11,759 bases of DNA from a virus. The notes beneath the pieces were generated by a model that was given only the letters and a program-made list of their open reading frames with translations, searched no databases and was not told the origin of the DNA. Position numbers and translations under genes: made by a program. The stretch lies in the UHGV virus genome UHGV-1580179; one strand, 5' to 3'. This document shows, piece after piece, positions 1-9,619 of the stretch (positions are counted from its first letter, which is position 1; each line of letters begins with the position of its first letter).

Positions 1-43
1 ATATTCACCGCCCTGGTGAGTAGTGCGTCCTGCTGATGTGTTT

Positions 44-106
44 AGTATCACCGCCAGTGGTATTTATGTCAACACCGCCAGAGATAATTTATCACCGCAG
101 ATGGTT
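44..106 (-). promoter_or_regulatory. pL promoter with OL1-OL2-OL3 operators (lambda-type)
   Basis: OL1 tatcaccgccagtggta 46-62, OL2 caacaccgccagagata 70-86, OL3 tatcaccgcagatggtt 90-106 match the lambda operator 17-mers from memory. On the minus strand, -35 TTGACA (67-72) and -10 GATACT (44-49) are separated by 17 nt. Transcription would exit the window leftward. Confidence 0.9.
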
Positions 107-261
107 ATCTGTATGTTTTTTATATAGATTTATTTTTTTGCAGGGGTGTGTGGCTTGGGAGGTGATCGAGAGATCTGAATTGCGATGTTTAGTGAGTTGT
201 ATCTATTAATTTTCAAATAAATACAATTGGTTATGTGTTATTGGGTGAAGGGGATCGTGAG

Positions 262-291
262 GCAAAGAAAACCCGGCACTGGGGCCGGGTT
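262..291 (-). terminator. Intrinsic terminator downstream of the ParA-like gene (position analogous to lambda t-imm)
   Basis: On the minus strand an 8-bp GC-rich stem (270-277 pairs with 284-291, core cccggc/gccggg, 6-nt loop) is followed by a U-tract (plus-strand caaagaaaa 262-270). It lies directly 3' of the gene ending at 299. Confidence 0.6.
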
Positions 292-298
292 GGTTGAT

Positions 299-1321
299 TT
301 ATAGTTTAACCACCATCCTATCAATGGCTTCTAAGCAAGATTGTTTATATGGGGCATTAACTTTTACCCTTCTGTTCATAACTCGTACACTACCTGTTGG
401 TAGGATCGAAAATGGACATCCTTTAGCAAAGGCAACAACACCAGTTGTCTGAAAATCTTTAATATTTACCACTCCCTCTTCAATATTTTCGAAGTCGAAA
501 ATTTCAGGGTTACTTAGTAATAGTTGCTGAATATCATTATCGATTGATTTTAGAACTGCGGCATAGGCTGATGCAGGCCCCATATACTGTGTAAGACGGT
601 TTTTTGCGATCATATGAACTTTGGGTAGTGGTCTGCTCACCGCGGTAAGTTTGTTTGCAAATGCGTAGGATGCATAAATATCAGATGGCAACTTTAATCC
701 ATAAATCAAAGAGAAAGCATTTTGAATGGCGCGACGAGAGGAATCATCAGCCATAACTGGCAAGATGAGCTTTTCTACAGCAGCTAATGCTATTTGAGTA
801 TAAATTGAAAAACTAGGATTACAGTCAATAAATAAAACATCGTACTCATCATTTAGATCTTTAATAAGATCATTAATCCAATCAATGATGCTTACCCATG
901 CATTTGTTCCTGGAATCTGCTGATTAGCAAGAGTGTTGATGGCGTTTGCTTGAAGCTCAAGAAGCGGGTCACCGCATACCAACGATATATTGGCTGGAAT
1001 ATGTTCGTTGAATTTTTTTGGGTGTGTCAAATAATCGTGGGCATCAACAATGGGTTTTTGATAAGGCGTCGGGAGGCGCATTTGGAAGTAGCCACCCAAA
1101 GTACATCTATTATTTATATCATGCCTAGTCAATAAGTTTATGCTTCCATTACCTATTAACCCCCCAAGAAAAAGCTCTGACAAGTTTGCCTGTGGGCACA
1201 CATCAATAACCAACACGCGCTCAAGCGGGTGAATTTCTGCATATCTGCAAATAGCTTGAAATGACAGGCTTGTTTTCCCTGTTCCTCCCTTGTTGTTCCA
1301 TATAGCATATTTCTTCATCAT
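299..1321 (-). CDS. Orphan ParA/MinD-family P-loop ATPase (340 aa) with ~90-aa C-terminal extension of unknown function
   Basis: Deviant Walker A KGGTGKTS near the N-terminus (MMKKYAIWNNKGGTGKT); ParA-type RVLVIDVCPQANLS motif; Walker B-like YDVLFIDCNPS. Start chosen at ATG 1321 (tandem ATG at 1318) with AGGAG 7 nt upstream; the ORF-track start at 1393 is a GTG without an RBS. Occupies the cI-to-OL slot where lambda has rexA-rexB. AT-rich relative to neighbours. Confidence 0.8.
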   Translation of the reverse strand: MMKKYAIWNNKGGTGKTSLSFQAICRYAEIHPLERVLVIDVCPQANLSELFLGGLIGNGSINLLTRHDINNRCTLGGYFQMRLPTPYQKPIVDAHDYLTHPKKFNEHIPANISLVCGDPLLELQANAINTLANQQIPGTNAWVSIIDWINDLIKDLNDEYDVLFIDCNPSFSIYTQIALAAVEKLILPVMADDSSRRAIQNAFSLIYGLKLPSDIYASYAFANKLTAVSRPLPKVHMIAKNRLTQYMGPASAYAAVLKSIDNDIQQLLLSNPEIFDFENIEEGVVNIKDFQTTGVVAFAKGCPFSILPTGSVRVMNRRVKVNAPYKQSCLEAIDRMVVKL

Positions 1322-1357
1322 AAACTCCTGGTTAACGATGTCATTGCTGGTTAATGT

Positions 1358-1435
1358 TTTACCATTGGTAAAGTGGTGCACCAAGAGTGACACGGTAAAC
1401 CAAATAGATCAAGACTTATGGTAAACGATTTACCA
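1358..1435. repeat. Two perfect palindromes sharing half-site TGGTAAA, plus one extra half-site, in the cI-ParA intergenic region
   Basis: tttaccaTtggtaaa 1358-1372 and tggtaaaCGAtttacca 1419-1435, with a single GGTAAACC half-site at 1394-1401. Centres are about 62 bp apart, immediately upstream of the ParA-like start. Confidence 0.6.
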
Positions 1436-1489
1436 GTGGTGACATCGATAACCGAAAAAGACTGCATTTCTGCAGCCTGTTTCACACAA

Positions 1490-2206
<717 letters not shown>

Positions 2207-2294: not shown

Positions 2295-2504
<210 letters not shown>

Positions 2505-2963: not shown

Positions 2964-3107
2964 ATGCGAAAAACGCAGGAAAATAAACGCGTTAATCACC
3001 GAAAAGATGTGCTACGTGACCAGTTTTATCAGGGGGTTAATCCAGCAATAGCTGTGCCACTGAGAGAAATACTTAACATGTACAAAACTTCGGAGAAGTC
3101 AAAATGA
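2964..3107 (+). CDS. Small basic hypothetical protein (47 aa), translationally coupled to the replication initiator
   Basis: ATG at 2964 with GAGGT RBS 6 nt upstream; stop overlaps the next start in ATGA at 3104-3107. Translation MRKTQENKRVNHRKDVLRDQFYQGVNPAIAVPLREILNMYKTSEKSK. No recognisable domain. Confidence 0.45.
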   Translation: MRKTQENKRVNHRKDVLRDQFYQGVNPAIAVPLREILNMYKTSEKSK

Positions 3108-3880
3108 GCATGAATCTTATGGCTAAGGCCATGAATATAAAGGTTGGCAACCCACTGAGAAAACTGGTTCTGATTAAACTTGCCGATAACGCCAATGATA
3201 ATGGCGAATGCTGGCCTTCATATCAACATGTCGCTGACCAGTGTGAGGTGAGCAGATCGACAGTAAAAAGTCACATTAGGGCACTGGAAGAGATGGGGCT
3301 TTTGAAAAGGGAATTCAGAAGAAAAGGAGAGCTTAACCAGTCAAACGTTTTTTATCTGACGCTGGATAATGCACAACAAATCCAGCCAGAATCAGGTGGG
3401 GCAGGAGCTGCCCGGGGTGGGGCAGGAGCTGCCCTAGGGGGTGGGGCAGGAACTGCCCCCAGAACCTATCACTCTTTTGAACCAGTCAATGAACCTAAAA
3501 ACATTATGTTCGAACATGTCCGAACGGAGTGTGAAAAAACTCCTGACCGTCACGAAGAAACCGACAAGGCATTCGAGGAAATATTCTGGTGTGCAGGCAT
3601 GCGGAAAGCCGGGAAGAAAAACGCAGCTTCGGCATTCAGAACACAGTTCAGGGAATGGCGTAAAACTACCAGGGGTACGGCAAGCGAGTTTGCCACGATG
3701 CTGGCAGAAGACATCGCATGCAGGAGTGGTAAGCAGTTCGGATTCGACAGGTTGTTACCATCGAGCTACCTGAACGGTCAACGCTGGAACGACGAGAAGC
3801 CAGAAACTATTCAACCGCAACCCAAACCATCATCCGCAATCACCGTATCGAAAACTGGCTACGTGTTTTTCGACAGGTGA
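3104..3880 (+). CDS. Putative replication initiator / origin-binding protein (258 aa; N-terminal winged-HTH, internal Gly/Ala linker encoded by iterons)
   Basis: N-terminal HTH-like segment (CWPSYQHVADQCEVSRSTVKSHIRALEEMGLLKRE). The ori-type iterons lie inside the ORF as in lambda O. Gene sits between cII and the primase-helicase. Confidence 0.6.
   Translation: MSMNLMAKAMNIKVGNPLRKLVLIKLADNANDNGECWPSYQHVADQCEVSRSTVKSHIRALEEMGLLKREFRRKGELNQSNVFYLTLDNAQQIQPESGGAGAARGGAGAALGGGAGTAPRTYHSFEPVNEPKNIMFEHVRTECEKTPDRHEETDKAFEEIFWCAGMRKAGKKNAASAFRTQFREWRKTTRGTASEFATMLAEDIACRSGKQFGFDRLLPSSYLNGQRWNDEKPETIQPQPKPSSAITVSKTGYVFFDR
3395..3458. repeat. Three 19-bp iterons with internal dyad symmetry (putative phage replication origin)
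   Basis: ggtggggcaggagctgccc at 3395-3413 and 3416-3434, and ggtggggcaggaactgccc at 3440-3458. Each contains the near-palindrome GGGCAG-N-CTGCCC. Followed by a moderately AT-rich stretch. Confidence 0.7.
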
Positions 3881-3990
3881 ACCATGAGATCCAGAATCAA
3901 ATCGTTACTTATCGCTGGCTATAACCATGGCTGGCTTAGTTCTGCATTCGTTGAGTTCTGGTTTAACCGTCTCGATCTGAGGTCAGCGTA

Positions 3991-5871
3991 ATGACTCCAA
4001 GTGAACTGAGCGACCTGCTTTGGGCGCAGGTTGACAGGGTGGCTCCGCACCTGTTGCCAAACGGCAAGAAAGAGGGGCATGAGTGGGTTGCCGGTAATGT
4101 CAACGGTGACAAGGGAAACAGCCTTAAGGTCAACCTTAGCGGCAAGAAAAAATGGGCTGATTTCGCCGAGGGAGACGGCGGTGACATGCTTGATTTGTGG
4201 ATGGCATGTCGTGGAATTAACCTGCATCAGGCTATGCAGGAAGCGAAAGCATTTCTCGGTATCAAGGATGACGATCACCATTTCGATGCCAGACGTGAGA
4301 AAAAATTCTCCAGACCTGATCGCAAGAAAATCGCCCGCTACGTTACCAGAACAGAATCCCATCTTGAGTACCTGCAATCGCGTGGCATATCGCCAGAAAT
4401 CGTAAAGCGCTACGAGGTTGTCAGCGGCAAGGTGTGGAATGGAGAGCGGGAACTGGATGCTCTGGTGATTCCGTACAAACGCGATGGTGAGTTGTTGCAG
4501 GTCAAGCGAATCAGCACTGAGCGCCCGGACGGGAAGAAAGTCATTATGGCAGAAGGTGATTGCGAACCTTGCCTGTTCGGATGGCAGGCTCTGGACGCTG
4601 GCGTGAGGGCGGTTGTACTTTGCGAAGGCGAAATTGATTGTATGAGCTATGCGCAATACGGCATCTCGGCGTTATCCGTACCGTTTGGTGGAGGGAAAGG
4701 CGCTAAGCAACAGTGGATTGAGTTTGAGTATCACAACCTCGACAGGTTTGAGGAAATATTCATCTCGATGGACGTTGATGATGTTGGTCGTGAAGCCGCA
4801 AGGGAAATCGCAAGCCGACTCGGTGAACATCGTTGCCGTCTTGTTACTCTGCCGTGCAAAGACATCAACGAATGCCTGATGAACGGTGTTACCGAGGATG
4901 AAATCTGGCAGTACATCGGCACGGCATCCTACTTCGATCCTGAAGAACTCTACAGCGCGCGAGAGTTTTACCAGGACACTATCAACGCTTTCTACGGCAA
5001 GCAGCAGTATCTGTTTAATCCACCGTGGGAATCTCTGGCAGATAAATTCCAGTTCCGTGAGGCAGAGTTGACGCTGGTCAATGGTGTGAACGGTCACGGA
5101 AAAACGGAGGTTGTCGGGCATATGGCACTTGAGGCAATGCGTCAGGGTGTGAAGACGTGCATCGCGTCACTTGAGCTGAAGCCTGGTATTCTCCTTAAGC
5201 GCCTTACCCGTCAGGCGACGTGCTGCAAGATGCCGCCAGTGCTGGAAATTGACTCTGCATTTAAATTTTATGACGAAAGACTTTGGGTGTTTGGCCTGAC
5301 CGGAACGGCGAAAGCCGACAGGCTGATCGAAATATTCGACTACGCTCGCCGCCGATACGGGATCCAGTTATTCATCATCGACAGCCTGATGAAATGTGGC
5401 ATAGGCGACGATGACTATAACGGGCAGAAGGCGTTTGTTGACTCGATTTGCGACTTCAAAAACAAAACAAACTCCCACGTCATTCTCGTTACTCACTCGC
5501 GAAAAGGAGACAGCGAAGAAAAACCAACCGGGAAAATGGACGTAAAAGGCTCTGGAGCGATAACAGACCTGACAGACAACCTTTTCATCATCTGGCGTAA
5601 CAAGGCTCGCGAGAGAGCGTTACAGAGAGTTCAGAGTGGTGAAAAGATGTCAGAGAAGGACGAACAGCTACTGGCATCTCCGGCATCTGTTTTGATGCTT
5701 GAAAAACAACGTAACGGCGAAGGTTGGGAAGGTGGTGTCCCGTTGTTCCTTGACGAGCAATCGCACCAGTTCCTGCAACTTGAATCAGGATCGCCATATA
5801 GCTACATCGCCAATATGCCGAAATCGGAATATGACGAGGCGTGGCGACAGGAAAACGTGACGGAGTATTAA
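3991..5871 (+). CDS. Bifunctional DNA primase / replicative helicase (626 aa; TOPRIM plus DnaB/SF4-like ATPase)
   Basis: TOPRIM-like acidic motif ...AVVLCEGEIDCMSYAQYGI...FISMDVDDVGREAA. Walker A LVNGVNGHGKTE and Walker B-like LFIIDSLMK in the C-terminal half. ATG 3991 is preceded by GAGG. Confidence 0.8.
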   Translation: MTPSELSDLLWAQVDRVAPHLLPNGKKEGHEWVAGNVNGDKGNSLKVNLSGKKKWADFAEGDGGDMLDLWMACRGINLHQAMQEAKAFLGIKDDDHHFDARREKKFSRPDRKKIARYVTRTESHLEYLQSRGISPEIVKRYEVVSGKVWNGERELDALVIPYKRDGELLQVKRISTERPDGKKVIMAEGDCEPCLFGWQALDAGVRAVVLCEGEIDCMSYAQYGISALSVPFGGGKGAKQQWIEFEYHNLDRFEEIFISMDVDDVGREAAREIASRLGEHRCRLVTLPCKDINECLMNGVTEDEIWQYIGTASYFDPEELYSAREFYQDTINAFYGKQQYLFNPPWESLADKFQFREAELTLVNGVNGHGKTEVVGHMALEAMRQGVKTCIASLELKPGILLKRLTRQATCCKMPPVLEIDSAFKFYDERLWVFGLTGTAKADRLIEIFDYARRRYGIQLFIIDSLMKCGIGDDDYNGQKAFVDSICDFKNKTNSHVILVTHSRKGDSEEKPTGKMDVKGSGAITDLTDNLFIIWRNKARERALQRVQSGEKMSEKDEQLLASPASVLMLEKQRNGEGWEGGVPLFLDEQSHQFLQLESGSPYSYIANMPKSEYDEAWRQENVTEY

Positions 5872-5956: not shown

Positions 5957-6169
5957 ATGGACACCGTTAACGGAATGTGTTCAGACGCACCGCGTGCCAA
6001 GAAATGTAAATGCGGAAAATCACCGACAATATTCGACATGGAGAACGGGTGCCAAATCTACTGCGCTAACCACGCTGCTGTGGCGGCCGCGAATTATCGC
6101 AGTGCGGTAACGGAGTGGAATAACCTGAAATCTGTTAGAGAGGGAAGTCATGAAAAAACTAACCTTTGA
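5957..6169 (+). CDS. Small Cys-rich hypothetical protein (70 aa; possible zinc ribbon)
   Basis: GAGGGGG RBS upstream of ATG 5957. Cys pairs in MCSDAPRAKKCKCGKS...NGCQIYCANH. Overlaps the ninB start by about 20 nt. Confidence 0.5.
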   Translation: MDTVNGMCSDAPRAKKCKCGKSPTIFDMENGCQIYCANHAAVAAANYRSAVTEWNNLKSVREGSHEKTNL

Positions 6170-6566
6170 AATTCGATCCCCAGCACATCAGCAAAACGCT
6201 ATTCACGCAGTACAGCAAATCCTTCCAGACCCAACCAAGCCAATCGTAGTGATCATTCAGGAGCGCAACCGCAGCATTCGGCAAAATGCACGCCTTCACG
6301 CGATGCTATCTGAAATAAGTAAGAAGGCTACATATCATGGAAAAGCAAGAAATATTGAGTTTTGGAAGGGGTTATTCGTTTCTGGTTGGCAGATTGCAAC
6401 CAATCAGCACCCTGAGATTATATCAGGGTTAGAAGGTGAGCTAATAAACATCAGAGAGAGTACGGCGACTCTATCTGTAAAAAAAATATCCGAAATAATG
6501 GACTACATAGAAGCATATTGTGCCATGAACTCAATTCATCTTAGCGAATGGAGGAATTATGATTGA
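6150..6566 (+). CDS. ninB: NinB-family recombination protein (138 aa)
   Basis: The first ~36 aa (MKKLTFEIRSPAHQQNAIHAVQQILPDPTKPIVV.IQERNRS) match lambda NinB as I recall it; the remainder is divergent but collinear. GAGGGA RBS. Confidence 0.8.
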   Translation: MKKLTFEIRSPAHQQNAIHAVQQILPDPTKPIVVIIQERNRSIRQNARLHAMLSEISKKATYHGKARNIEFWKGLFVSGWQIATNQHPEIISGLEGELINIRESTATLSVKKISEIMDYIEAYCAMNSIHLSEWRNYD

Positions 6567-7161
6567 GGTTTGGGTAGATATCGAAGGGATTCCATTTTAT
6601 CAGGTTAGCAATAAAGGAAATTTTAGGTCTATTACGAGGGAAGTTACAGTAACATCAACCAGACAGAGGCCATATAAGAAAATAATTAATGGCACTAGTG
6701 TAAAACCATTCAAGTGCAAGTCGACAGGATATCTTCAAATAAAGGTATACGGTATGAAATACAGCGCCCACAGGATAGTTGCGAAAGCATTCTGTACAGG
6801 GTTCTGTGATGGCTTGGTAGTTAATCACAAAAATGGGCGAAGAGATGACAATAGGGCTGATAACCTTGAATGGGTATCACATTCTGAAAACTCAAAACAC
6901 GGATATAAACAAAATGGAAGAATACCTATATCGCTAGGTAAATTTAGTGGTGACCATCCTGCCAGTAAAGCTGTTATTTCTACTGACATGAAAACTGGGG
7001 AGGAGGTTTATTATGAAGCAGCTATGGATGCTGTCAGAGAAGGATTTGATAGTTCGTCAATTAGTCGTTGCTGTAATGGCGAAAGCTCATATCACAAAGG
7101 AAGATTCTGGCGATTTGCAAATGAAAAAATGAAAGCGAGATGGGGAGATCGGGCTGCATGA
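6559..7161 (+). CDS. HNH homing endonuclease (NUMOD4 plus HNH_3; 200 aa) inserted at the ninB 3' end
   Basis: NUMOD4-like WVDIEGIPFYQVSNKGNFRS; HNH motif LVVNHKNGRRDDNRADNLEWVSHSEN. AGGA RBS and ATG overlap the ninB stop. The last 9 residues (KARWGDRAA) equal the lambda NinB C-terminus as I recall it. AT-rich. Confidence 0.85.
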   Translation: MIEVWVDIEGIPFYQVSNKGNFRSITREVTVTSTRQRPYKKIINGTSVKPFKCKSTGYLQIKVYGMKYSAHRIVAKAFCTGFCDGLVVNHKNGRRDDNRADNLEWVSHSENSKHGYKQNGRIPISLGKFSGDHPASKAVISTDMKTGEEVYYEAAMDAVREGFDSSSISRCCNGESSYHKGRFWRFANEKMKARWGDRAA

Positions 7162-7685
7162 CTATCAAATCAAATACGCCAGCACACGACAAGGACTGCT
7201 GGCAAACGCCGCTTTGGCTTTTTGATGCACTGGATATTGAGTTTGGATTCTGGCTGGATTCGGCAGCGAGCGACAAAAATGCTCTGTGTGCTCACTGGCT
7301 AACTGAGGCCGACGACGCGCTCAATTCTGAGTGGCTAAGCCACGGTGCAATCTGGAATAACCCACCGTACAGCAATATCAGGCCGTGGGTGGAAAAAGCC
7401 GCTGAGCAGTGCATGCAACAGCGACAGACGGTAGTTATGCTTGTGCCAGAGGATATGTCAGTCGGATGGTTCAGCAAGGCTCTGGAGAGTGTCGACGAAG
7501 TTCGCATTATCACTGATGGACGGATTAATTTTATCGAACCATCGACAGGGCTGGAGAAGAATGGAAACAGCAAAGGTTCCATGCTGCTGATTTGGCGACC
7601 GTTCATCAGTCCTCGACGGATGTTTACTACCGTATCCAAAGCGGCATTGATGGCGATCGGGCAGGGCGTCAGGAGGGCGGCATGA
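7158..7685 (+). CDS. Phage Dam-family DNA N6-adenine methyltransferase (175 aa)
   Basis: NPPY catalytic motif ([10 protein letters not shown]) and N-terminal [25 protein letters not shown] typical of the phage Dam family (PF05869-like, from memory). ATGA overlap with the preceding stop. Confidence 0.8.
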
Positions 7686-8138: not shown

Positions 8139-8822
8139 ATGACAACTCAAATCTCTGTTGAAACACTCTCCACGATTACTTACAAGCAGATCCCCGTTAT
8201 CACTACCGAACTTTTGGCGCACCTTTACGGCACAGAAGCTATTCGTATTCGCCAGAATCACCACGAAAACAAAGGTCGTTTCATTGAGGAAAAACACTTC
8301 TTCAAACTTGAAGGTGAAACTTTACGTGAGTTCAAGCACAGAGTAGCTTTTAACTACTCTGTGAAAATTGCCCGTAACGTTCGCTCCCTCATCCTCTGGA
8401 CAGAACGAGGCGCAGCCCGTCACGCAAAAATGCTCGAAACCGATCAGGCGTGGGAAGTGTTCGAAAAACTGGAAGACTGCTATTTCAGCCAGTGCGAGAA
8501 AAATACTGGCAAACAAGAGAAGAAGCTCAACGGGCTTTCCGCAAAAGAAACAGACAGCCTTGTATGGCTGTGGGATTATGCCAACCGCTCACAGGCATTG
8601 TTCCGTGAGTTGTATCCCGCATTAAAACTGATTCAGTCTGGCTATTCCGGCATATGCCACGACTACGGCTATGAGTTCTCGTATATCATCGGGAGGGCGA
8701 GGGGCGTTTTAATTAATCACACGCGGGATATAGATATTTATGAGCCTGACGGGCCGACGAACCTTCTGGCATGGGAAAGGCTTAAGAACAAAGAGTTGCC
8801 GCCTTCACTGCATCGCTACTGA
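8139..8822 (+). CDS. ORF6N-domain DNA-binding protein (Roi-like; 227 aa)
   Basis: N-terminal pattern [43 protein letters not shown] fits the ORF6N domain (as in HK022 Roi). GAGGG RBS 7 nt upstream. Confidence 0.7.
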
Positions 8823-8841
8823 CAATTGACAACTTAACAAA

Positions 8842-8866
8842 CCCAGCTTCGGCTGGGTTTTTTATT
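8842..8866 (+). terminator. Strong intrinsic terminator (TTCG tetraloop) between the roi-like and rha-like genes
   Basis: acccagc-ttcg-gctgggt hairpin (8842-8859) followed by ttttttatt. Confidence 0.75.
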
Positions 8867-8896
8867 GGTGAATTTTCAATATGAGAGGACATGACA

Positions 8897-9619
8897 ATGA
8901 ACGAGCTGATAAATAGCAACGTCATCAAAATGACTAGCATTGAAATCGCTGAGCTTACAGGTAAGCGTCATGACAATGTGAAACGTACCATCGAAACGCT
9001 GGCTAAAAATGGTGTTATCCGGCTTCCTCAAATTGAGGTTTCCGAAAGAATCAATAACTTAGGGTTCAATGTTCAGTACGAGCATTACGTCTTCGAAGGC
9101 GAACAAGGTAAGCGCGACAGCATTATTGTCGTCGCTCAGTTGTCGCCGGAATTCACCGCTCGTCTTGTTGACCGTTGGCGAGAGCTTGAAGACGCTGCGG
9201 TTAATATCCCCAAAACGCTACCAGAAGCGTTGCGCCTTGCTGCTGATCTTGCTGAGCAGAAAATGCAACTGGAAAACCAGCTCGCAATTGCCGCACCTAA
9301 AGTTGAGTTTGCCGATCGCGTTGGCGAGGCCAGCGGAATTTTGATTGGAAACTTTGCAAAGGTTGTTGGAATTGGTCCAAACAAACTGTTTGCGTGGATG
9401 CGCGATCACAAAATCCTTATTGCTTCAGGTTCCCGGCGCAATGTGCCAATGCAGGAATATATGGATCGCGGCTATTTCACAGTGAAAGAAACAGCGGTCA
9501 ACACAAATCACGGAATACAGATATCGTTCACCACAAAAATCACCGGGCGTGGTCAACAGTGGCTGACCAGAAAGCTGCTCGATAACGGAATGCTGAAAGT
9601 AACAGGGGAGGCTGCTTAA
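8897..9619 (+). CDS. Rha-family regulatory protein with C-terminal KilA-C/ANT domain (antirepressor-like; ~240 aa)
   Basis: Rha motif MTSIEIAELTGKRHDNVKRTIE. C-terminal ANT-like segment GNFAKVVGIGPNKLFAWMRDHKIL...QEYMDRGYFTVKE. Start is ATG 8897 (GAGAGGA RBS) or ATG 8891. Confidence 0.75.
   Translation: MNELINSNVIKMTSIEIAELTGKRHDNVKRTIETLAKNGVIRLPQIEVSERINNLGFNVQYEHYVFEGEQGKRDSIIVVAQLSPEFTARLVDRWRELEDAAVNIPKTLPEALRLAADLAEQKMQLENQLAIAAPKVEFADRVGEASGILIGNFAKVVGIGPNKLFAWMRDHKILIASGSRRNVPMQEYMDRGYFTVKETAVNTNHGIQISFTTKITGRGQQWLTRKLLDNGMLKVTGEAA

Follow-up and report, generated by a model that had tools for sequence, protein, structure and literature searches.

What does a lone ParA-like ATPase gene do between the cI repressor gene and the OL/pL region of a lambda-type prophage, where lambda itself carries rexAB? 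The question is raised by an 11,759-nucleotide (nt) stretch of the virus genome UHGV-1580179 (hereafter, the window), in which such a gene occupies that place. Comparison of its product with characterized proteins showed that it is a divergent relative of GiPD474, a prophage protein that restricts phages, and hence a new member of a recently described kind. Judging from these sequence relationships, it is probably a lysogen-borne anti-phage gene. The fuller reading, which joins a GiPD474-type, lysogen-borne single-protein anti-phage function with carriage as the cargo of an exchangeable cassette and with autoregulation through DNA binding, has in our estimation a slightly better than even chance of being right as a whole.

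GiPD474 (STM474_RS13505) is a defence protein of the Gifsy-1/Gifsy-3 prophages in Salmonella Typhimurium 4/74 (Bosma, Noireaux and Bowden, AEM 2025; PMC12724215). This ParA/AAA_31-like protein of 361 amino acids (aa) comes from one gene of the Gifsy-1 immunity region, and deletion of gipd474 restored plating of phage Felix O1. When present alone, either in Salmonella or in E. coli, GiPD474 restricted Felix O1 and lowered the plating of T4 and Alf5 by about 5 and 5.5 logs, respectively; six further phages were unaffected (PMC12724215). The protein that we used as the gipd474 product (P0138) had the published length and the published GGVGKT motif at residues 29-34, and the arms of the published knockout primers matched its gene at 941-980 without mismatches and at 1980-2019 with a single one. 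The window protein aligned with GiPD474 over 99% of its length (residues 4-339 with 21-359) at 32% identity and an expectation value (E) of 1e-52. A candidate exclusion or anti-phage role, put forward for this gene in an original prediction made from the DNA letters, has thus gained a precedent in a full-length homologue. The accompanying statement that the gene belongs to no named defence system remains valid for the 2023 PADLOC collection but not beyond it. In the literature on ParA-like proteins with an anti-phage role, the GiPD474 paper (PMC12724215) was the only one that we found.

The likeness between both genes is not limited to sequence. Each is a single ParA/AAA_31 gene of the 'long' architecture, alignable from end to end with the other, and gipd474 is also located just 3' of a CI-type prophage repressor gene on the same strand, is AT-rich (gene GC content 0.41) and is carried by prophages across Enterobacteria. 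The differences are a 17-20-residue N-terminal tail present on GiPD474, the low identity itself, a gipd474 leader devoid of the repeat motifs described below, and the reach of the window subfamily into Actinobacteria and Xanthomonadaceae; moreover, anti-phage activity has been demonstrated for GiPD474 only. Since the Klebsiella and GiPD474 proteins have enterobacterial relatives with 74-100% mutual identity, compared to 32% for the window protein, the latter probably falls outside the three published GiPD474 clades, to judge by these values.

The product of the window gene had been described as a ParA/Soj-type ATPase, and this was borne out by the presence of all three motifs initially noted (KGGTGKTS, VIDVCPQAN and YDVLFIDCNPS), by Pfam matches above threshold to AAA_31 (1.1e-16) and CbiA, and by a match to PHROG_164, annotated as 'ParA-like partition protein' (7e-39). 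The deviant Walker A motif (NNKGGTGKTS) contains the signature lysine K11 and the Walker A residues K16 and T17, followed by the Walker A' aspartate D40 and the Walker B aspartate D166. All of these residues were invariant, K11 and K16 in two alignments, of 22 and of 28 homologues. Together with the ParA fold, the two aspartates place the protein in the ParA/MinD (SIMIBI) ATPase superfamily. Other motifs, namely WNNKGG, CPQxNxSE..LGG, DCNPSF and NRxT, were family-specific. An AlphaFold model built with 28 sequences reached a predicted local distance difference test score of 85 and a predicted template modelling score of 0.89, and Foldseek alignments of this model spanned 333-344 columns for a query of 340 aa. 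Profile alignment to Soj paired query residues 5-64 with Soj 10-66 and query residues 156-191 with Soj 109-144, revealing two insertions, one of about 50 residues that separates switch I from Walker B and one of about 36 residues past Walker B. Taken together, the Foldseek span and the profile alignments indicated that the whole protein is one ParA fold. A separate C-terminal domain was rejected, because the structural alignments cover the full span and the last elements of the model (beta strand 284-288, helix 290-300, G301-x-P303 and a terminal helix 323-339 modelled as part of the fold) are those of an ordinary ParA C-terminus. What had been taken for a novel C-terminal extension of about 90 aa is therefore the usual ParA C-terminus, displaced by the insertions. 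No N-terminal helix-turn-helix (HTH) was found, in agreement with the original prediction, and ten longer homologues carried no recognisable Pfam domain other than AAA_31 and CbiA.

Among solved structures, the best sequence match (E = 3e-11) was DIP2308 from Corynebacterium diphtheriae (PDB 3PG5), an uncharacterised structural-genomics protein of 361 aa with an FNNKGGVGKT motif. It is collinear with the window protein over residues 1-202, insertion region included, but the sequence match ends at about residue 200. The chromosomal and plasmid ParA, Soj and McdA proteins (PDB 8RAY, 2BEK and 6NOO) have in common with the window protein a deviant Walker A motif that includes the signature lysine, as well as the Walker A' and Walker B aspartates, whereas the roughly 90 residues of insertions and the motifs WNNKGG, CPQxNxSE and DCNPSF set the latter apart. 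Furthermore, the window gene has neither ParB nor another partner, is not part of a partition locus, and its product scored far under the cutoffs of the curated NCBIfam partition models (NF041546, 35 vs 180; TIGR03453, 40.5 vs 348; NF010259, 12 vs 725).

The genomic position of the gene was equally informative. On the minus strand, cI is followed by a 168-nt spacer, the ATPase open reading frame (ORF), a hairpin terminator with a T run, and the lambda OL/pL region, in accordance with the predicted location between cI and OL/pL on the cI strand and with the predicted flanking terminator. The cI gene is 98-99.5% identical in DNA sequence to those of lambda, HK97 and mEp234, and cI, cro and their flanks as a whole are 96-99.5% identical to lambda, HK97, mEp234 and HK106. 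Lambda, HK97, mEp234 and ev099 match the window only from position 1 to about 293/308 and from 1489/1494 onwards, with breakpoints at approximately 294-308 and 1488-1493, and the segment swapped is exactly the one going from the cI stop to the shared downstream terminator. The slot is filled by rexAB in lambda, gp48/49 in HK97, hicAB plus an ORF in mEp234/HK106 and a gene with an NYN domain in ev099. As these lambda-immunity phages match the flanks only, the ATPase gene adds to the cargoes of an already known exchange slot, and its proposed residence in the rexAB slot was confirmed by the breakpoints. The downstream terminator lies within the flank common to these phages and thus belongs to the slot, not to the cargo. 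All these cargoes are lysogen-associated accessory genes with the same flanks; compared to RexAB, however, the window protein has no sequence relationship, is encoded by one gene instead of two, and is separated from cI by a terminator-like hairpin, while we know of no terminator between cI and rexA in lambda. When megablast was run on 5426 complete genomes of E. coli and on 50,697 phage records, it matched flanks only; tblastn alone recovered the gene, in one of the phage records.

The boundaries of the gene were also refined. The locus had been delimited as 299-1489, of which the gene itself, which stood, takes 299-1318/1321, and the remainder is a leader belonging to the same mobile cassette. 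A Shine-Dalgarno sequence (AGGAG, 1325-1329) is located 3 nt from a first ATG (1321) and 6 nt from a second one (1318). Given this better spacing and the length of the homologues (339 aa), the product probably has 339 aa. The listed ORF frame extends up to a GTG at 1393 (299..1393, 364 aa), but that frame overlaps the leader repeats and its use is unlikely. No other ORF fits between cI and pL. The AT-richness noticed at the outset was evident in a GC content of 0.39, as opposed to 0.475 in the rest of the window.

Homologues were abundant, with 5338 retrieved in a word-indexed search and 2022 at E <= 1e-3 in an exhaustive search of representatives at 50% identity. The 90% cluster that includes the window protein is almost entirely from Salmonella enterica (Infantis, Kentucky, Typhimurium and others), and this Salmonella cluster has 181 members. 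Salmonella phage S.Inf 5-2 carries the same cassette, 93% identical in DNA over window positions 251-1513, behind a different repressor of 250 aa. In this phage, the final 24 nt of a cI gene of lambda type persist as non-coding DNA (L001 5801-5825, corresponding to window 1490-1513), 36 nt past the stop of its own, unrelated repressor gene. This cI remnant is a footprint left when the cassette was moved away from lambda-type immunity surroundings. Relatives of lower identity (31-36%) were found in Pseudomonas phage phi297 and in Klebsiella phage ST11-VIM1phi8.2, again directly behind the repressor gene and on its strand. A scan of IMG/VR revealed a relative in 152 viral contigs. Out of 75 loci having an upstream ORF, this was on the same strand in 55 and was an S24/HTH cI-like repressor in 26, always on the same strand (26/26). 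Those 26 repressors formed 16 clusters at 90% identity, and copies at least 88% identical to the window protein were nearly all behind such a repressor. This recurrent position behind at least 16 different cI-type repressors supports a moron or defence role.

Outside phages, the ATPase gene stood alone, either bordering an integrative element or within a prophage remnant. No conserved neighbour gene appeared in the Hafnia, Stenotrophomonas, Streptomyces, Mycolicibacterium, Nocardia and Rahnella contexts, and a Pfam search of the window revealed no ParB, so the gene is an orphan, as had been proposed. Two actinobacterial contexts deserve description. In Streptomyces sp. DK15 (L009 7273-14381), the homologue and the genes for two tyrosine recombinases of 800 and 415 aa are placed between two fragments of a NAD-dependent DNA ligase gene (one HHH/BRCT, the other adenylation plus OB), as if a three-gene element had interrupted ligA. 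In Mycolicibacterium mageritense (L099 7001-14431), the homologue sits beside tig and marks the extreme end of a small integrative element which also encodes an integrase, a resolvase and a Prim-Pol/AAA_25 replicase.

The window protein is 64-70% identical to its counterparts in Streptomyces, Micromonospora, Mycolicibacterium, Nocardia, Xanthomonas and Stenotrophomonas, whereas the corresponding genes share only 61-68% nucleotide identity and their GC content at third codon positions (GC3) ranges from 0.33 to 0.74. Preservation of the protein despite low nucleotide identity and shifting GC3 indicates purifying selection. In each host compared the gene was AT-richer than its flanks, with the exception of Hafnia, where both values were equal (0.398 vs 0.395). 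These sequence data point to old, repeated transfer under strong purifying selection rather than to recent spread. They also bear on the idea that the gene is an inert hitch-hiker, a decaying partition gene caught in a recombination hotspot and devoid of any current function. Orphanhood from any ParB and residence in a known site of cassette exchange would agree with such a fate, but the ORF is intact, every catalytic residue is invariant, and full-length homologues with the protein and nucleotide identities given above number in the thousands, which makes decay scarcely credible.

The 168-nt leader travels with the gene. To describe it, leaders from 12 cassettes located behind different repressors (at least 10 distinct ones) were aligned, and three elements proved to be conserved: a terminator hairpin after the repressor stop, with the family consensus GAGGTCGCAGAAATGCGGCCTTTTTTT; GGTTAACGATGTCACC repeats, present as two direct copies and one inverted copy that abuts the Shine-Dalgarno sequence; and 8-1-8 palindromes of the form TGGTAAAC-N-GTTTACCA. 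The copies in the window are partly degenerate, yet they form an inverted repeat with 36-nt arms that are 81% complementary. The same leader was found in Rahnella together with an 86%-identical gene and no repressor upstream. Simple co-transcription with cI is doubtful, because the conserved terminator-like hairpin stands between both genes. A sigma-70 scan of positions 1-2400 yielded 4 sites against 5.9 expected, and the sole site near the gene overlaps the start codon and was discounted; by eye, a weak promoter candidate (TTGATC-N17-CACTCT) was noticed in the window leader. GiPD474-type genes are also preceded by a hairpin plus T run near the start codon (L003 4895-4925; L019 800-836 and 868-890), and in the Klebsiella phage the element reads GACCGGATAATTTTCTGGTC and then GCTTTTTT, some 30 nt ahead of the ATG. 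Cassettes of this sort may in general be shielded from transcription that starts upstream of the repressor gene.

A different but analogous arrangement was observed in a sister clade, 60-76% identical at the protein level, where a TTGACA-N17-TATAAT-like promoter is bracketed by GTCCA-N3-TGGAC palindromes (consensus ATGTCCATAATGGACGCTAnAATGTCCACAATGGACA). This layout is kept in Hafnia, Stenotrophomonas, Streptomyces, Nocardia and Mycolicibacterium, whose homologues are 64-74% identical, and the promoter-operator unit appears to be conserved across phyla. The palindrome occurred within 150 nt upstream of the gene in 14 of the 20 non-redundant loci, a 53-fold enrichment over the rest of those loci (nominal Poisson P = 8e-24, which is no true probability because the loci are related). 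The ATPase is the sole protein that travels together with the leader sites, and for this reason the simplest reading would be that it binds them and regulates its own expression; the sequences thus suggest autoregulation through sequence-specific DNA binding. In the sister clade, sites acting as DNA are favoured over an RNA structure because the palindromes bracket the -10 element; in the window leader, the repeats may act at either level. Type Ia ParA proteins possess an N-terminal HTH domain and act with ParB. The resemblance to these autorepressors (P1 ParA, F SopA) would be that of a ParA ATPase binding operator repeats at its own promoter, and the difference is that the window protein has neither the N-terminal domain nor ParB.

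Some viral contigs contained tandem arrays of half-sites, with 7-10 units of 9 nt and, in L043, about 74 units. The unit is GTCCACGAT or GTCCACGGC, and the arrays are directly upstream of 74%-identical homologues (L043 2313-2978; L044 2907-2987; L045 2597-2722). They could be centromere-like, could serve as a binding-site sponge or could result from slippage. The first of these options leads to a minimal module for DNA positioning or maintenance, in which the ParA motor would use the adjacent repeats as a centromere-like site without ParB and stabilise excised or replicating copies of the element instead of acting against phages. Iterated or palindromic repeats directly upstream of the gene are indeed reminiscent of type Ib/II partition loci, and actinobacterial copies reside in small integrative elements with an integrase and a Prim-Pol replicase. 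In contrast, a centromere-binding partner was missing from every context, the gene sits in the immunity region of integrating lambdoid phages instead of a replication or partition module, GiPD474 cloned alone confers phage resistance, and the first two NCBIfam partition scores given above are a fraction of their cutoffs. Absence of ParB in every context, integrating lambdoid hosts and the gene content of the rest of the window make a partition role unlikely, and we consider the positioning module as such quite improbable.

Another alternative is that the gene modulates lysogeny or host physiology, either by mimicking MinD/ParA on the division machinery or the nucleoid or by acting as a DNA-binding regulator that adjusts prophage or host genes, any phage resistance being a side effect. 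Adjacency to cI, the operator-like palindromes, a very high conservation suggestive of a conserved cellular or DNA target, and weak similarity to MinD, MipZ and BcsQ models would fit this view. Nevertheless, the scores remained far below the cutoffs (19 vs 201.75 for the NCBIfam MinD model TIGR01969; Pfam MipZ and BcsQ also below theirs), and the MinD/ParA mimic initially offered as an alternative has no support. In addition, the 11.7-kb window contains no further copies of the repeat motifs, the family crosses phyla that differ in division machinery and regulators, and GiPD474 works in a heterologous host. We regard modulation as the primary function as slightly less probable than positioning.

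A bolder possibility unites the leader and the proposed defence role in a one-protein DNA-recognition device. Here, the ATPase would use its insertions to read the palindromic or iterated sites as an ATP-dependent dimer or filament and repress its own promoter, and the same activity would coat, trap or silence phage or foreign DNA, the whole having spread as a promoter-operator-gene unit from Enterobacteria to Actinobacteria. Although this proposal is unlikely as a whole, it has somewhat better prospects than the positioning module and, if true, would amount to a ParA that reads specific sequences independently of ParB, and to a novel mechanism of defence.

The reading that we prefer, a GiPD474-type anti-phage cargo which controls its own expression, would work as follows. 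A small mobile cassette, consisting of a terminator, a repeat-rich leader and one gene, has entered the 'moron' slot that a prophage of lambda immunity offers between cI and OL. The encoded protein is a 'long' ParA/Soj-fold ATPase that possesses every deviant Walker A element needed for an ATP-sandwich dimer, carries family-specific insertions totalling about 90 residues, and has no partner protein. Carried by the lysogen as a single-protein defence of the GiPD474 type, the ATP-dependent dimer would disturb a post-adsorption step of some incoming phages, and it would also recognise the palindromic or iterated repeats of its own leader, resulting in autoregulated expression. Several observations weigh against this reading. 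Anti-phage activity of the window subfamily is predicted from homology, and at 32% identity the function may have diverged. The protein matched 0 families of PADLOC-DB v2.0.0 at E <= 1 and has no effector domain, and such a high conservation across phyla is unusual for defence proteins. Regarding DNA recognition, neither repeat motif is present in the clades of GiPD474, of the Klebsiella protein and of phi297 and, consequently, specific binding may not be a family-wide property; to our knowledge, ParA proteins without an HTH do not read specific sequences; and the repeats could act as RNA instead, since the window leader is predicted to form a stable RNA fold (z = -4.7). Finally, with a terminator after cI and no convincing sigma-70 promoter in the leader, expression in the lysogen is unproven.

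The features of the locus are collected in Table 1.

Table 1. Coordinates of the ATPase cassette, its leader elements and its immediate surroundings in the window; the last row refers to sister-clade loci.
Feature	Position	Strand	Remarks
OL operators and pL promoter	~30..100	-	pL = TTGACA-17-GATACT at 72..44
Intrinsic terminator 3' of the ATPase gene	270..291	-	AACCCGGCCCCAGTGCCGGGTT then TTCTTT
ParA/Soj-fold deviant Walker A ATPase gene	299..1321	-	340 aa from ATG 1321, more probably 339 aa from ATG 1318; stop TAA 299-301
Leader, part of the cassette	1322..1489	-	Absent from lambda, HK97, mEp234 and ev099; present behind other repressors
Repeat array, candidate operator or cis site	1330..1453	-	
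Inverted copy ATGACATCGTTAACC	1344-1330	-	Abuts Shine-Dalgarno AGGAG (1329-1325)
Repeat TTTACCAATGGTAAA	1372-1358	-	
Second, degenerate copy of the GGTTATCGATGTCACCA repeat and the TGGTAAATCGTTTACCA palindrome	1401-1385 and 1383-1366	-	
Palindrome TGGTAAATCGTTTACCA	1435-1419	-	
Repeat GGTTATCGATGTCACCA	1453-1437	-	
Terminator-like hairpin right after the cI stop	1455..1478 (hairpin 1478..1459 plus T run)	-	AGGCTGCA-GAAA-TGCAGTCT then TTTTT
cI repressor gene, lambda immunity type	1490..2203	-	237 aa
cro gene	2304..2504	+	Defines the immunity region with cI
Palindrome/promoter loci of the sister clade	L004 7930-7985; L010 7940-7975; L009 7914-7990; L101 6940-6990; L099 6920-6980		

The remaining genes of the window encode cII, a replication initiator, a primase-helicase, NinB, an HNH endonuclease, Dam, two antirepressors, YbcO and RusA. 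The replication module (3104-5871) is not that of lambda O/P and comprises an HTH_36 initiator-like protein and a 626-aa Toprim/DnaB-like primase-helicase. Between ninB (6150-6566) and the Dam methyltransferase gene (7140-7685) there is a NUMOD4/HNH_3 homing-endonuclease-like gene (6559-7161), in an AT-rich region (GC content of about 0.38-0.41). In the nin region, two antirepressor-type genes, ORF6N/P22_AR_C and Rha/ANT-KilAC, adjoin each other (8139-9619).

The cross-phylum conservation of the subfamily and its self-contained, repeat-bearing leader are the new elements that this analysis contributes to the GiPD474 kind of protein. If the subfamily is active against phages, ParA-like single-gene defence would no longer be confined to one Gifsy protein of Enterobacteriaceae but would reach thousands of members in prophages and integrative elements of several phyla, and the classic rexAB slot of lambda would gain a defined new cargo. 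The promoter-operator repeats that travel with the gene provide a handle on whether a ParA without HTH or ParB reads specific DNA. Lastly, Salmonella Infantis and further serovars commonly carry the gene, which could therefore affect phage-based biocontrol, as GiPD474 does for Felix O1.

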